DNA of 36,752 bases, from the IMG/VR virus record IMGVR_UViG_3300037462_000147, positions 1 to 36,752 of that record; one strand, written 5' to 3'. Positions 5,547-34,630 of this stretch are shown piece by piece. Position numbers and translations under genes: made by a program. This DNA comes from a virus. Taxonomy: Duplodnaviria > Caudoviricetes. The first letter of the stretch is position 1. Each line of letters begins with the position of its first letter. Below the pieces are notes generated by a model, which was given only the letters and a program-made list of their open reading frames with translations, searched no databases and had not been told where the DNA came from.

Positions 5547-5886
5547 TTTTATGCAGCCCGAGCGTGAGTTGTTCCCATGTCATGCCGCCTTGAATCACCC
5601 TGTGCGGCTTTCGATACTTGCGCCTGCTCCACTTGCCGAAGAATGCAATCTCTGCAACGCGCATCGGCGGTTCCCTGTCAAAAATGACTTTGTAGAACGC
5701 GCACAGGCGCTCACCGTCTGAGTGGTTCGGCTCTGCGCCGTGGTTGAACCATTTGCGGATCGTGCTCTCTCGCTTGTTCAGTGCTTCGGCAATCTGAGCG
5801 TGCGTTACCCCTGCCCGGCGAAAATCCATTGCCAGGCGGTGCCAGTCATGCAGGCGTTCAACGGGGCCGCGCTCGCTCTTGCGCAT
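5539..5886 (-). CDS. HTH DNA-binding protein; candidate late-gene activator
   Basis: HTH-like segment GVTHAQIAEALNKRESTIRKW; last early gene before terS (Q-like position); ATG overlaps the upstream TAA. Confidence 0.7.
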   Translation of the reverse strand: MRKSERGPVERLHDWHRLAMDFRRAGVTHAQIAEALNKRESTIRKWFNHGAEPNHSDGERLCAFYKVIFDREPPMRVAEIAFFGKWSRRKYRKPHRVIQGGMTWEQLTLGLHKNA

Positions 5887-9223: not shown

Positions 9224-9446
9224 CCTTCGCCTCCCACAGGCGCCCACGCATGCCGCAAGGCGTAAACCACTTCCGCCCGCGCTCATTGCGGCAGTCAGTG
9301 CTTGAATGAGGCTGCGGAGAAGACAACGCCCAATTGTCCCGAGCGTTCACCTTCGGGTGATAACACATCAACAACCAAGGGCTGTCAGGCGGTGAGCCTG
9401 AGTGCCGACAGTCTCGGCAAAAATTGGGCAGTTCCGTCTTAAACAT
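9216..9446 (-). CDS. Small Cys-rich (Zn-binding) protein inserted between O-like and P-like genes
   Basis: CRDCRH...C.HP...C..ER...CG..G.LWE; flanked by a 10-bp direct repeat. Confidence 0.65.
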   Translation of the reverse strand: MFKTELPNFCRDCRHSGSPPDSPWLLMCYHPKVNARDNWALSSPQPHSSTDCRNERGRKWFTPCGMRGRLWEAKDV

Positions 9447-9849
9447 CAATGATCTCCCGCGCGTTCAAATGCTCTTTGAGCCGTGCAATGAAGTTCGGGC
9501 GCTCAGAAACCCTGGGAGCAGCCCTCTCTGTGTAATACCCAGCCCATCCCTTCTCTGCACAGATCGCCACAGCCTCGGCGGGCGTTTTCCCGTCGTTTGC
9601 AGCATCTCGGCAGAACCGATCCCAGGCGGTTGGGGTCAGAGGCAGACGCTTGGCCTTGCGCGCGCGGAGCCAGTCAGCCCAAGCCTGCTCACTGACGCCC
9701 TCAGGGCGTGAAACCGTGGACGATTTTGACCGGCTGCGCTCTACAGCTACAGCGGCGTCCCAGCATCGGCGCAGCCTGCGATCCTCCGCGCTGTCATCCG
9801 ACGGATGGTACGTCGGGCGCTCTGTTTTCATCCACTCATCAAACGTCAT
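9439..9849 (-). CDS. Replication initiator (O-like) C-terminal domain only
   Basis: PEGVSEQAWADWL.ARKAK..PLT..A.....GW.G resembles C-terminal domains of lambdoid initiators; only 136 aa, with no N-terminal HTH. Confidence 0.65.
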   Translation of the reverse strand: MTFDEWMKTERPTYHPSDDSAEDRRLRRCWDAAVAVERSRSKSSTVSRPEGVSEQAWADWLRARKAKRLPLTPTAWDRFCRDAANDGKTPAEAVAICAEKGWAGYYTERAAPRVSERPNFIARLKEHLNAREIIDV

Positions 9850-11374: not shown

Positions 11375-11614
11375 TTAAAGGCCGCCGGCATCAGCGCAAC
11401 GTCCACTAGAGCCGCTTCCAAAGCCGCAACCCTCACCCGAGCCACAGCCATCACCAAAGCCAGAGCCAGAGCCGAATCCGTAGCCCTCACCAGATGATTC
11501 ACCACAGCCAAAGCCAGAGCCGCAGCCCTCGCCCTCGCCAGACCCGCCGCCGTAGCCGTCGCCGTAGCCGGAGCCGAAGCCAAAGCCGTTAACAAACCGC
11601 TTACTTGTACTCAC
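11375..11614 (-). CDS. Gly-X dipeptide repeat protein (GFGFGSGYGDGYG...)
   Basis: Strict Gly-alternating frame; GTG start inferred, overlapping the end of the upstream gene. Confidence 0.55.
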   Translation of the reverse strand: MSTSKRFVNGFGFGSGYGDGYGGGSGEGEGCGSGFGCGESSGEGYGFGSGSGFGDGCGSGEGCGFGSGSSGRCADAGGL

Positions 11615-11963
11615 GGATTTGCGCCTCGACGCCGGGGCCAACGGGGATCAACTCACACACGCCGGTCAAGTAAATGAGCGGGTTCATCGAATCCACCTTG
11701 CATCCGGCCTGCATCCCGCTTTGCGCCACACCAGACAGCGCAATGCCGTTTTGGGCCTTCCAGCTCCAAAGGCGGCGGGAGTTTTCAAGGATCACATTCT
11801 CGCCGTCCACGGACACCACGCGGCCAGCATGGACGCCAGCAGCGTAGCAACGCGCAATGCAGAAAGTGCCGATAAACGGGTGCTTTTCGGTTGTCGGCTT
11901 GGCGGCCCCGAACATAGCCAAAATCTGCTTCAGGTCACCCAAGGTGATGTTGTCTGTACTCAT
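11601..11963 (-). CDS. DUF6948-like small beta-barrel phage protein
   Basis: IG.FCIARCY.AGVH.G.....GE.V.L..SRRLW.W....ALSGVA..G...ELIP pattern; GGAG RBS. Confidence 0.75.
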   Translation of the reverse strand: MSTDNITLGDLKQILAMFGAAKPTTEKHPFIGTFCIARCYAAGVHAGRVVSVDGENVILENSRRLWSWKAQNGIALSGVAQSGMQAGCKVDSMNPLIYLTGVCELIPVGPGVEAQIREYK

Positions 11964-11977
11964 GGTTTCTCCTGTCC

Positions 11978-12169
11978 TTACTTCACTCGAAAAGGCGCGC
12001 AGTCTTCATCGGCCTTCAGCTTGCCTTTGGTGATGCGCTCGATCTGCAGTTGCCGCAGCGCAGGCGGTCGGTCAGACCAGCTTCCGCTAATGGTGTGCTG
12101 CTTGATGCCGAGGGCTTCCGCCAGCTTCTGCTGGGTGCCGAAAAACTGAATCGCTTGTTGTTTCGTCAT
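11978..12169 (-). CDS. cro: Cro-family repressor (probably leaderless)
   Basis: MTKQQAIQFFGTQQKLAEALGI....IS.W....P..RQLQIE.IT.GKLKAD; ATG lies 7 nt after the -10 box. Confidence 0.9.
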   Translation of the reverse strand: MTKQQAIQFFGTQQKLAEALGIKQHTISGSWSDRPPALRQLQIERITKGKLKADEDCAPFRVK

Positions 12170-12175
12170 TGCGCT

Positions 12176-12219
12176 ATCGTACACACGACCGGCTGTTTGT
12201 GCAATTGATTGTCGCAATC
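12176..12219 (-). promoter_or_regulatory. Early sigma70 promoter for the cro operon with upstream palindromic operator
   Basis: TTGCAC (12204-12199), 17 bp, TACGAT (12181-12176); GATTG-N3-CAATC at 12207-12219. Confidence 0.8.
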
Positions 12220-12248
12220 GAAATATGCGCTTTGATAGAAAAAACTAC

Positions 12249-12277
12249 TTGACCGGGCCGCCGCACTGGGGTAACTT
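12249..12277 (+). promoter_or_regulatory. Sigma70 promoter in the PRM-like position driving the structured RNA
   Basis: TTGACC, 17 bp, TAACTT; A-tract UP-like element at 12236-12245. Confidence 0.75.
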
Positions 12278-12283
12278 ATGCGC

Positions 12284-12650
12284 GTCGATGCTGCCACGTC
12301 GGAGTCATAGAGCCCTCGCTCATGCGCTTACCCGAAAGGGGAATGGTGTGGCAGCACCAGAGCGCAGCAGCGAGGGCTTTTGCGTTTGAGCGTCAGGGCG
12401 CGCACGACAAAGCACATGGGCCTGCATGGGCCGCACCCACGAAACACACGCCAGCCGCTCACCACGGTCTAGGCGGAGCGGCCTGTCTGCGAGGGACCGC
12501 ACAAGACGCAGGTTCACGGGGTGGTAACCAAGCCTGCATCGATGAATCGCAGCCTCCGGGTTTGCTGGCCTTAGAGATACTAAGGTGGGCAGGGAATGGA
12601 GCATGGGCTCCACCCTTGGGGGATCTATTCTCTAAGCAATCCTAGGCTAT
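12284..12650 (+). ncRNA. Candidate highly structured ncRNA / RNA-based switch or origin element
   Basis: At least nine helices found by eye, a GAAA tetraloop, complementary loops CUGCCA/UGGCAG and G-U pairs favouring the plus strand; no credible ORF. Confidence 0.7.
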
Positions 12651-12665
12651 CGATTCTCAAGTGTT

Positions 12666-12708
12666 GATTGCAACAATCAATTGCAAGCATCGGAAGTGCG
12701 ATTACAAT
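12666..12708 (+). promoter_or_regulatory. Early rightward sigma70 promoter with the same operator
   Basis: TTGCAA (12681-86), 16 bp, TACAAT (12703-08); 12666-12685 is the reverse complement of 12200-12219 with one mismatch. Confidence 0.8.
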
Positions 12709-12740
12709 ACGGTCATTGCAGTAGCAACCACGGAGACGCA

Positions 12741-12917
12741 ATGACCCACCCTCAACTCTCACCCGCTGGACTGGCCATTGTGCGCGAAGCACAACGCCAG
12801 CACATCCAGCGCAATGCTGCCCGCCGTGCAGAACGACAGATACAGGAGCACTTCGGCCCGCGTGTGGTTTCGCTTGAGGTGCGCCGTTTCAACTCAGGCC
12901 GGAAGGTGACGGTATGA
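12741..12917 (+). CDS. Small basic protein, copy 1 of tandem duplication
   Basis: GGAG RBS; C-terminal [28 protein letters not shown] identical to copy 2. Confidence 0.75.
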   Translation: MTHPQLSPAGLAIVREAQRQHIQRNAARRAERQIQEHFGPRVVSLEVRRFNSGRKVTV

Positions 12918-13708
12918 GCAAGTGTCTTGTCGAGATCAAACACCGCTACACGGGTGCAGTGCTGTACGCGCACGAAACCACGGCAGAGCGGCAAGCAAGC
13001 GGCATGGCAATGCGCGACGCGCTGGAAGCGGCGTGTAAGGCGCGTGCCGACCTCGCGGATGCCAACCTCGCGCGTGCCAACCTCGCGGATGCCAACCTCG
13101 CGGATGCCAACCTCGCGCGTGCCAACCTCGCGGATGCCAACCTCGCGGATGCCGACCTCGTGGGTGCCGACCTCGCGGGTGCCAACCTCGCGCGTGCCGA
13201 CCTCGTGGGTGCCGACCTCGCGGGTGCCAACCTCGCGCGTGCCAACCTCGCGGATGCCAACCTCGCGGATGCCAACCTCGCGCGTGCCGACCTCGTGGGT
13301 GCCGACCTCGTGGGTGCCGACCTCGCGGGTGCCAACCTCGCGCGTGCCGACCTCGTGGGTGCCGACCTCGCGGGTGCCAAAAACGCCGATCTGGTCATTG
13401 CGCGCACGCGCATCCTGCCTGATGGTGACTTGATCGGCTGGAAAAAATGCCGCAATGACGTGATCGTCAAGCTGCGCATCCCGGCCGATGCCAAGCGCTC
13501 GCACGCTTTTGGCCGCAAGTGCCGTGCTGAGTTCGCCGATGTGCTGGAAATCATTGGCGCAAAAACCGCGATCAGCAAGCACGATGAATCGGTGATTTAC
13601 GCAGTCGGCCAGCGAGTGACCGCGCATGAATGGTGCGACAACTGGCAGGAAGAGTGTGCAGGCGGCATTCACTTCTTTATTACGCGCGCCGAAGCGGAGG
13701 CCTACTGA
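12914..13708 (+). CDS. Pentapeptide-repeat protein with C-terminal DUF5758-like domain, copy 1 (22 repeats)
   Basis: A(N/D)L(A/V)(D/G/R) x22, then [19 protein letters not shown]...RKCRA...[16 protein letters not shown]. Confidence 0.92.
13046..13375 (+). repeat. 15-bp tandem array, 22 units GCC-RAC-CTC-GYG-(GAT/GGT/CGT)
   Basis: Counted directly from the sequence. Confidence 0.95.
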
Positions 13709-13875
13709 TGACCCTCTCACCCCAAGGCACAGCAGCCATCAAGCAGGCCGTGCAGCAGCACATCGCACGGAACAACGCCCGCCGTACAGAGCGGCAGATA
13801 CAGGAGCACTTCGGCCCGCGTGTGGTTTCGCTTGAGGTGCGCCGTTTCAACTCAGGCCGGAAGGTGACGGTATGA
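13708..13875 (+). CDS. Small basic protein, copy 2
   Basis: TGATG coupling; paralogue of 12741-12917 with a diverged N-terminal half. Confidence 0.75.
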
Positions 13876-14789
13876 ACAAGTGCATTGTTGAGATCAAGAA
13901 CCGCTACACGGGTGCAGTGCTGTACACGCACGAAACCACGGCAGAGCGGCAAGCAAGCGGCATGGCAATGCGCGATGCGCTAGAGGCGGCGTGTAAGGCG
14001 GATGCCAACCTCGCGGGTGCCTACCTCGCGGATGCCAACCTCGCGGATGCCTACCTCGCGGGTGCCAACCTCGCGGGTGCCTACCTCGCGCGTGCCAACC
14101 TCGCGGATGCCTACCTCGCGGGTGCCTACCTCGCGCGTGCCAACCTCGCGGATGCCTACCTCGCGGGTGCCTACCTCGCGCGTGCCAACCTCGCGGATGC
14201 CAACCTCGCGGATGCCTACCTCGCGGGTGCCTACCTCGCGGATGCCTACCTCGCGGGTGCCTACCTCGCGGATGCCAACCTCGCGGATGCCTACCTCGCG
14301 GGTGCCAACCTCGCGGGTGCCAACCTCGCGGATGCCTACCTCGCGGGTGCCTACCTCGCGGATGCCAACCTCGCGGATGCCGACCTCGTGGGTGCCGACC
14401 TCGCGGGTGCCTACCTCGCGGGTGCCAACCTCGCGCGTGCCAACCTCGCGGGTGCCAAAGGCGCTGATCTGGTCATTGCCCGCACGCGCATCCTGCCGGA
14501 CGGCGATCTGATCGGCTGGAAGAAATGCCGCAATGAAGTGATCGTCAAACTGCGCATCCCGGCCGATGCCAAGCGCTCGCACGCTTTTGGCCGCAAGTGC
14601 CGCGCTGAGTTTGCCGATGTGCTGGAAATCATTGGCGCAGAAACCGCGATCAGCCATCACGATGAATCGGTGATTTACGCGGCTGGCCAGCGAGTGACCG
14701 CGCATGAATGGTCTGACGATTGGCAACAGGAATGCGCGGGTGGCATCCACTTTTTTATCACTCGCGCCGAAGCGGAGGCTTACCAATGA
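13872..14789 (+). CDS. Pentapeptide-repeat protein with C-terminal DUF5758-like domain, copy 2 (30 repeats)
   Basis: A(N/Y/D)L(A/V)(D/G/R) x30 with the same flanking domains as copy 1. Confidence 0.92.
14004..14453 (+). repeat. 15-bp tandem array, 30 units GCC-DAC-CTC-GYG-(GAT/GGT/CGT)
   Basis: Counted directly from the sequence. Confidence 0.95.
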
Positions 14790-33388: not shown

Positions 33389-34630
33389 TTAGGCCACCAG
33401 CTTGCAGGCCAGTTCGGGGTAGGTCGCAGCCCACCCGTACAGCACGTCAAGACGAGTGACGTTGCGGTCGTTCAGGCCGTCGTAGAAGGTCACAACCTTG
33501 ATGGTCATGCCCTTGTACGTTTCCTGAGCCTGGTCAATCACACCGTTGCCATTGGTGGACGGCAGAACCATCGGCACGCAAGCCAGCGTGAAGGCGTCCT
33601 TGTGATAGGCCACGTTCGCGCGGTAGCTGGCGTTGGCTGCACCCAGCACCGAGATGGCTGCCAAGTTGGCCGGGCTGGCGGTCACGTTCTGGAATGCACC
33701 AGAAGGCGTGATAGCCGGGCTGATCGGGATGGACGTTGCGCCGGCAAGTACGTCAGCGGTCACGACGAACTGTTGCAGACGGCCAGTGGACTGGCGCGAC
33801 TGCGGGTTCACCGAGAACACACCCGCGATGGTGATGATCGAACCACGGGTGATGGTGCCCGTGATCGATGCGCCGGTAACCGTCAGGTTGGAGCCGGTCT
33901 GGCCTGCGCCTGCAACGGTGCCGCCCGTGGTGGGCTGCGTGCCGTTGGTGTGCGTCTGCACGTTCTGATCCATGGCGAAGCTCAGGCCCAGCGGGTCAAC
34001 CAGCAGGCCCTTGTCGTACTGCTCGGAGAGCTTGCGCTGGTTGTTGAACAGACCCTGCAGACCAGACACCAGACCGGCGTTCATGAACGGCTCAGTGACT
34101 AGGAAGCGGTCTTGACGCGGTGCGCCTGCGTAGTCCAGCACAGCGTTGGCTTCCGTCATGGCACCCAGCGCGGCGGCTTGGGTGTTCGGCAGTGCGCCCA
34201 CGGTGCCAAGGCCAGTACCCGACACGTTGGCAGCATGGAACGTGGCAAAGCGAGCCAGCGCCAGGCCGTCAAGGTCGATCTGGTTGGCAATCGGAGCCAT
34301 CGCAGCCATCAGCTTCTGTTCGATCTGCTGCAGCGACAGGGTGCGGTCCAGCGTAGAAAAGCCGAGTTCCGTACCGCCTTGGTTGACGGTCAGCGGAACG
34401 GTCGTTTCGACGGTGGCCTGCGGGCCTGCAATGGCAGCGCCAGAGCGGTACGTGTAGCGCGGGGGGCGCTTGATCTGGATGGTCTGGCCGGACGAATAGC
34501 CGCGTGACTGGTTAGACGCGAACTCGCTCTCGTAAGCGCGGTTTGCGTTGCTGGCAAAGCCCAGCATGTTTTCTAGGATCGCGAGGGCTTCCTTCGCGAC
34601 AATCGAGCAAGTAACAAGAGTGTTTGACAT
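33389..34630 (-). CDS. Major capsid protein, P22 gp5-like
   Basis: MSN.L.T...VAKEAL.ILEN.L......R.Y...F....G.TI.I..P; YHKDAFTLA; RLDVLYGW....PE.AC. Confidence 0.93.
   Translation of the reverse strand: MSNTLVTCSIVAKEALAILENMLGFASNANRAYESEFASNQSRGYSSGQTIQIKRPPRYTYRSGAAIAGPQATVETTVPLTVNQGGTELGFSTLDRTLSLQQIEQKLMAAMAPIANQIDLDGLALARFATFHAANVSGTGLGTVGALPNTQAAALGAMTEANAVLDYAGAPRQDRFLVTEPFMNAGLVSGLQGLFNNQRKLSEQYDKGLLVDPLGLSFAMDQNVQTHTNGTQPTTGGTVAGAGQTGSNLTVTGASITGTITRGSIITIAGVFSVNPQSRQSTGRLQQFVVTADVLAGATSIPISPAITPSGAFQNVTASPANLAAISVLGAANASYRANVAYHKDAFTLACVPMVLPSTNGNGVIDQAQETYKGMTIKVVTFYDGLNDRNVTRLDVLYGWAATYPELACKLVA

Follow-up and report, generated by a model that had tools for sequence, protein, structure and literature searches.

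What occupies the gap between the cro gene and the next operon of this phage, where a lambdoid phage would have its cI gene? The window, by which we mean the whole stretch of 36,752 nucleotides analyzed here, is a virus record of 96% completeness, whose genes include P22-like head and tail genes along with those for RecT, SSB, NinB and a Cro-like protein; a PHROGs scan of 60 ORFs found neither integrase nor cI in it, and phrog_4 gave just one weak HTH match (5698-5838). The gap itself is gene-free. On its left lies the gene of a Cro-like repressor (11978-12169, minus strand; PF14549, E 1.4e-17), divergent from the element, with a predicted rightward-type promoter (-35 at 12199-204, -10 at 12176-81) and an operator-like repeat at 12176-12238 of the minus strand. 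On its right, a second operator-like repeat and the separate predicted promoter (12681-12708) of a pentapeptide/RecT operon take up 12647-12708 of the plus strand. Lying between cro and that promoter, and flanked by the two inverted repeats, the element holds the lambdoid cI position in the window. The original prediction had placed here a structured RNA with a two-part layout, an RNA switch or primer replacing CI and/or the O-iteron origin, and every string that it quoted is present in the window where it was said to be. The putative sigma-70 promoter of this RNA (12249-12277, plus strand; TTGACC-17-TAACTT) is oriented like PRM and recurs in relatives, as 44/80 members have, at the equivalent position, a -35/-10 pair with a score of 8/12 or better (counted without a shuffled control); the window's own copy matches at 8/12 only and went unlisted by the scan, which listed no minus-strand promoter or terminator. 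A search for RNA sequencing runs that contain the stretch returned none.

In the flanks, the -10 of the cro promoter (12170-12204, minus strand) stands only 6 nt ahead of the ATG, which suggests a leaderless message. At 12740-14789 (plus strand), a short ORF and a pentapeptide-repeat/DUF5758 gene (264 and 305 aa) are tandemly duplicated, and this duplication is composed of near-identical 15-bp repeats. A short low-complexity Gly/Tyr/Asp ORF (11375-11641, minus strand), whose repeat is matched by many unrelated contigs, lies behind a DUF6948 gene (11601-11963).

The element folded more stably than its shuffles, both over 12280-12650 (z -3.89; 0/100 shuffles equally stable) and over 12280-12390 (z -3.66; 1/200 equally stable). 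A search with a 17-nt motif gave one relative, and widened patterns on viral, genome and metagenome contigs gave 140 matches. Of these, 34 had fewer than five outer pairs and were left out, except for five retained for their clear box complement; once duplicates and one further locus (L226) had also been removed, 86 distinct members remained, the window among them. The 5′ module (12285-12387) therefore recurs in 85 other distinct sequences. Alignment A1 holds 62 of the 86 members and alignment A6 holds 19 hand-picked 3′ cores of the window's type, called type X below. A loose pattern built on the window's own loops was discarded, as it returned about 14,000 stretches and no homologue among 120 loci fetched. 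Neither the window nor three relatives had a match among cultured phages and plasmids, apart from 25-35 nt pieces within Erwinia phage genes. With a covariance model, one copy per genome was found in 9/9 genomes, and 2/151 genomes of a betaproteobacterial order were matched, one of them being the search center. True members on cellular assemblies lie on contigs titled Xenophilus, Thiobacillus, Janthinobacterium, Lysobacterales, a gammaproteobacterium and Opitutaceae, and these titles suggest that the hosts are probably mostly betaproteobacteria. In one run (X1) part of the core is present in divergent form on a second contig, corresponding to 12478-12557 of the window.

Codon-level conservation of the ORFs overlapping the RNA would have refuted the original prediction, and it was not found. 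Across homologues, the plus-strand ORF attains 100 codons in just 4/80 and any minus-strand frame is open in 14/80, the length of the module falls in all three phases (35/28/23), and the overlapping ORFs have no Pfam or PHROG match. The compensatory changes described below bear out the predicted two-part structure, and we regard the existence of the RNA family as almost certain. It may resemble phi29 pRNA, T-loops and RNase P.

The 5′ module begins with a hairpin (12285-12302, plus strand) bearing a variable box a (12289-12297), of which 61 different versions exist among 78 members. It is followed by a three-way junction (12311-12378) made up of the long stem P1 (12311-28/12361-78), the GAAA-loop hairpin P2 (12331-40), which is a variable hairpin in members, and P3 (12344-59), which carries the segment a′ (12348-56). 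A U-run and GCGUU (12379-12387) form a terminator-like tail of P1 and can alternatively pair with 12360-66 as an antiterminator; this U-run/GCGUU motif belonged to the search pattern. In the 62 aligned sequences, 97.7% of the cells of P1 and P3 are paired, 11/19 pairs show two-sided changes and 144 cells are altered on both sides, whereas slid controls were 35-57% paired, and both the long stem and the P3 hairpin of the original prediction are thereby supported. Because the search pattern itself fixed the invariant CUCAUGCG, CGCAGCAG and UUUUGCGU columns, their constancy is no evidence; the pattern imposed neither the outer stem nor the box complement.

Box a is complementary to the P3 arm, in the P2-P3 segment, over at least 9 nt in 78/86 members, compared with 2.7% of mismatched pairs. 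The 6-nt kissing loop originally described is thus a real and covarying complement of greater length, namely 9 nt in the window (12289-97/12348-56), and the pairing is better termed a strand exchange of 9-16 nt. One member (L161) has a P3 arm in the same sense as its box a and no complement. On that contig, which also bears L145 and L148 (L145 at 1975-1995), P3 looks as if it had been inverted in the DNA, which is either a natural test case or an assembly artifact.

When pairing of a with a′ was forced, the fold lay a median of 2.8 kcal/mol above the minimum (n=78; 6.1 in the window), and in 62/78 members the 3′ strand of P1 was left free to pair with the UUUGCGUU tail as an antiterminator. 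The read-through fold is also predicted to contain an alternative hairpin, CAU(A)GAG/CUCAUG (12306-12324), a loose motif for which is present in 66/86 members (counted without a control). The forced folds point to two states, a terminator-like P1 with its U-run and a read-through fold. The scan did not list the U-run as a terminator. We consider that the 5′ module probably switches termination and that its short form acts in trans; by analogy with P4 CI and C4, as treated in parts of PMC4825925 and PMC5320573, the short RNA would drive termination in trans.

A second, unrelated type of switch, with a 5′ hairpin bearing a GUGGCA loop, a long stem and a U-run, takes the place of the window's type on the same cores about 430-550 nt upstream of the initiator (L350, L356, L357, L378, L384, L391 and L398), and had no Rfam match in the 11 loci examined.

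An RNA of this kind could be all that there is, that is, RNA-only immunity that replaces CI, with the structured core behind the switch as an accessory. The window itself invites such a reading, as the element lies between two operator-like repeats at the place of cI, the pairing code is hypervariable, and strong CI-type matches and integrases were each found in just 2/24 records (13 of the 24 being one clade). Nevertheless, we judge it very unlikely. A divergent cro gene stands upstream in only 4/75 loci, so that replacement of cI, as put forward in the original prediction, is a local accident and not the rule; cI-like genes coexist with the RNA, as in L161 and G010; and the early promoters of the window lie outside the transcript of the RNA. 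Nor was a second target of box a found within 400 nt downstream, where the longest complement was 6.44 nt against 6.47 nt in the control; a few members have partial box copies of 7-9 nt there.

In most members the switch is followed by a structured core of about 250 nt, of which several types exist. In that of the window (type X; 12390-12630, plus strand), 94.1% of cells are paired and 17/24 pairs show two-sided changes in the 19 chosen sequences. Homologues support the originally predicted helices at 12420-32 and about 12508-37, but not those at 12454-60/12476-82 and 12488-501: relatives instead pair 12478-84 with 12493-500 (4/7 pairs with two-sided changes) in a hairpin with an invariant bulged A (12478-12500; 100% paired), which also displaces the proposed pseudoknot CGGUCU/GGACCG. 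The hairpin predicted at 12569-85 falls in a length-variable insert. By contrast, the proposed GGGGUGG/CCACCCU pseudoknot was borne out as a long-range pairing of GGUGG (12520-24) with CCACC (12610-14), present in 49/49 distinct parsed cores as 44 GGUGG/CCACC, 4 GGUGA/UCACC and 1 GUUGA/UCAAC, which amounts to few independent changes.

The window had no Rfam match at gathering score and no meaningful one at E up to 10; nor did the C4 model or its clan match the element in four loci or, at gathering score, the module in 51 loci. Directly 3′ of the module, however, the motif Betaproteobacteria-1 (RF02932) scored above its gathering score in 5/40 homologous loci (L158, L198, L256, L257 and L283). 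By these matches, Betaproteobacteria-1 makes up the leading 120 nt of one of the core types in this RNA system. The Rfam model covers neither promoter nor switch nor the 3′ half found here, and the window's own core does not match it; Rfam thus already holds the core of one subfamily, but nothing of the window. A Betaproteobacteria-1 core without a switch follows the end of a primase-like gene (toprim, by eye) in L330. True RNAs of other families occur as separate units on two contigs, a C4 RNA in L271 (2125-2210) and an int-alpA RNA in L152 (1305-1370).

The core ends in a conserved G-run followed by CTATT in the window (12615-12629) and by CTATG in most relatives, which is a candidate RNA-to-DNA junction or a relic of a ribosome site and start codon. 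An alternative function is that of a cis-acting leader, with attenuation by the switch and with a core that either antiterminates processively or controls translation of the genes behind it; P1 c4-icd-ant and HK022 put are precedents for such logic. Many cores close with a GGAG-like site and an ATG, from which a frame of 60 codons or more runs in 31/53 loci, an antirepressor lies downstream in L307, and three loci (L264, L237 and L299) seem to have kept the switch without a full core. Still, a leader is unlikely in our view: the motif is retained in 6 loci where the frame is at most 14 codons, the window has ATT in place of ATG and then a separate promoter, and the genes downstream, which include those for a small terminase, Erf, NinB, HNH, RNase H and an initiator, are unrelated to each other. 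The orientation of downstream ORFs (28 same, 17 opposite, 2 none) was discarded, being confounded by shadow ORFs. In L224 an RNase H gene (phrog_531, E 4e-40) lies directly behind the RNA, 284 nt past the switch.

The window also encodes, on the minus strand at 9439-9849, an O-like initiator of 136 aa that corresponds to the C-terminal part of its family only (phrog_678 positions 215-290 of 346), and an in-frame stop lies 14 codons upstream of its ATG; a search for relatives of this protein found none. We call such proteins headless. The C-terminal part of O probably serves helicase loading. Headless initiators of the phrog_678 type are encoded in the window, at a distance from the RNA, and directly behind it in four loci (L161, L198, L239 and L260) that span three different core types, while those of the phrog_270/9474 type accompany it in G009, G011, L269 and L288. 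For the latter family we compared the best 80 loci for a headless query with the best 80 for a full-length query. Core profiles, which included close relatives of part of the headless set, matched 76/80 headless loci against 0/80 controls with the same C-terminal domain and 0/23 cro-matched loci; in the four coreless loci of the headless set the gene lies at most 1.4 kb from the contig start. By length of the initiator ORF, a core was found in 76/82 short and 0/60 long cases, a further 18 cases being unclear. The switch model at E <0.01 was matched in 23/80 headless and 0/80 full-length loci. In a quick tree on few columns the 76/80 set is one clade, so that it counts as about one event. Ahead of the headless initiators, at least two types of switch have been exchanged over two types of core; the window's type or a near variant accounts for 30 loci and another type for 30, with 8 other and 8 cut off.

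Among the RNA-bearing records (87), 24 initiators were found, of which 12 are short, 10 full-length and 2 intermediate, whereas the 13 initiators found in the 23 cro-matched control loci are all long. A full initiator and a DnaB-type helicase are encoded in 4/8 annotated near-complete genomes, which, like the ten full-length initiators, counts against a replication role of the RNA. In many loci the RNA occupies the gap between the cro-like and headless genes (by eye), and MW202484.1 provides a public example in which it lies just behind the headless gene, with promoter and RNA at about 33480-33880. As the RNA may precede or follow the initiator gene (L269, L288 and L494) or lie on the opposite strand (window), it is not the leader of that gene. 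These associations give the claim that the RNA replaces the O-iteron origin real, if indirect, support, and they fit the gain of a second origin followed, in some lines, by loss of the origin-binding half of the initiator.

Iteron counts were uninformative, full-length controls likewise having just 2-3 copies. The predicted fold of a headless phrog_270-type protein (pLDDT 85) had no Foldseek match at E 0.001 and its sequence no match in PDB; the SPP1 helicase loader G39P, the top match of a wider search (Z 4.7, rmsd 2.5, 59 residues), was rejected, as it was tied with unrelated rows. Short initiators of a distant clade (L480, L488 and L489) had no core detected. A CPCCG motif stands at the N-terminus of the short initiator in these three loci and in L490, likewise without a detected core, and may mark another route to a headless initiator.

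The link to initiators could instead be one of shared ancestry, if the RNA were a stand-alone, trans-acting molecule with the same switch and an unrelated job as a protein sponge, in counter-defense or in connection with tRNAs, like GOLLD and ROOL. It has its own predicted promoter and is often followed by a separate one, as in the window; contexts are highly varied (99 downstream and 101 upstream ORFs scanned), full initiators can adjoin it, the headless set forms one clade, and two tRNA-Ser genes lie inside a stem of L306. What such a molecule leaves unexplained is why two unrelated families of headless initiators should stand beside three or four core types, and why 12/24 initiators should be short against 0/13 in the controls, and we consider it fairly unlikely. 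The tRNA-Ser genes of L306 (1195-1379) lie in sense within a long stem immediately 3′ of the switch. A similar stem has variable inserts in L254, L264, L275, L279, L289 and L293, and ARAGORN found tRNAs in 1/15 loci picked for stem inserts.

It is highly improbable that the structure acts as single-stranded DNA, as a lagging-strand or primosome signal, and not as RNA. The link to replication genes would suit such a signal, and comparative data alone cannot show which molecule is the active one; yet a promoter stands at the equivalent position in many members, pairs of the G-U type are retained on the plus strand, which folds better than its complement, the loops include GNRA and UUCG, and the tRNA genes are inserted in sense.

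Our best reading, to which we assign a probability of about 0.5, is an RNA that serves, in the manner of ColE1, as a primer or origin and is controlled by a CI-like switch. It would account for a promoter-preceded, structured non-coding sequence, common to many uncultured phages, that joins a predicted two-state 5′ switch to a pseudoknotted core, and the core would likely be an RNA primer or R-loop that opens the replication origin of the phage; whether the core starts replication we regard as evenly balanced. In a fresh infection, box a would be made first and would capture a′ on its emergence, so that P1 stays open, the antiterminator can pair and transcription runs on to yield the 350-nt RNA. 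The folded core would then hold its 3′ terminus in a lasting hybrid with the template, like ColE1 RNA II, and the headless initiator, having lost its origin-DNA-binding half, would aid loading of the host helicase on the displaced strand. The short terminated RNA, probably trimmed at its 5′ side like C4, would bind box a of new transcripts in trans and force termination. Such a step would both control copy number and shut out phages that carry an identical box, and the existence of 61 different codes would thereby be explained. More tentatively, and at somewhat short of even odds, we propose that a mobile RNA-primed origin has been swapped for the iteron origin across a widespread class of tailed phages, with interchangeable CI-like switches of hypervariable code and interchangeable pseudoknotted primer cores, one of which is Betaproteobacteria-1, and that O-type initiators have been pared down, on more than one occasion, to the half that loads the helicase.

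Even if read cautiously, the data reveal an RNA system of about 350 nt that is abundant in phages of fresh water and soil and, one fragment excepted, uncatalogued. It covaries strongly and offers 61 pairing codes as a natural library, and the orphan Betaproteobacteria-1 motif is placed within a larger unit and given a testable job. The available text of the literature, including PMC5737381 (which mentions c4-2 once), PMC2864571, PMC8683028 and PMC10690425, gives no account of the system; supplements may hold parts. Should it be an origin, it would unite priming of the ColE1 type with RNA immunity of the P4 type in lambdoid-like phages, explain the half-length initiators and offer compact, code-programmable replicons for betaproteobacteria; and if that origin is mobile and RNA-primed, replication control and superinfection exclusion would be one RNA device.

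Compared with known systems, the module shares the three-stem junction of the P4 CI, P1-P7 C4 and IsrK RNAs (RF01695). As in the parts of PMC5320573 and PMC4825925 that treat P4 CI and C4, a variable segment is complementary to an upstream site on its own transcript, and short and long isoforms are plausible here too. The module differs in that it matches neither C4 nor any other Rfam family, its a′ sits in the P3 hairpin, no a2/seqC target was found downstream and a 250-nt core replaces icd-ant; in the absence of a model match and of a downstream target, the switch would operate like CI/C4 but is not a member of that family. As regards the core, the relevant passages of PMC5043065 describe for ColE1 a promoter-driven RNA that forms a persistent hybrid, is cut by RNase H and is extended by Pol I, and place the replication origin of lambda within O, while those of PMC3035462 present the Vibrio MRB plasmids as a second RNA-only origin. 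With ColE1 RNA II/RNA I and the Vibrionaceae MRB plasmids, to the extent covered by these passages, the phage element shares a structured non-coding stretch behind a promoter (a predicted one here), presumed control by its first 100 nt, and a 3′ end with a G-run and a CTATG-like motif. The ColE1 3′ motif is comparable (L495, 685-695), the shared motif being only about 6 nt and, in many loci, a possible start codon. The phage RNA differs in that its sequence resembles no plasmid, of the ColE1 type or otherwise, and has no Rfam match to RNA I or RNA II, in being shorter (350 versus 550 nt), in that its presumed inhibitor derives from the sense strand and is not a counter-transcript, and in being found in tailed phages, next to a headless initiator protein. 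With the O/iteron origin of lambda it shares, in many loci, the map position after cro, as well as the C-terminal domains of the initiator; it departs from lambda in that about half of the RNA carriers examined have an initiator without its N-terminal half.
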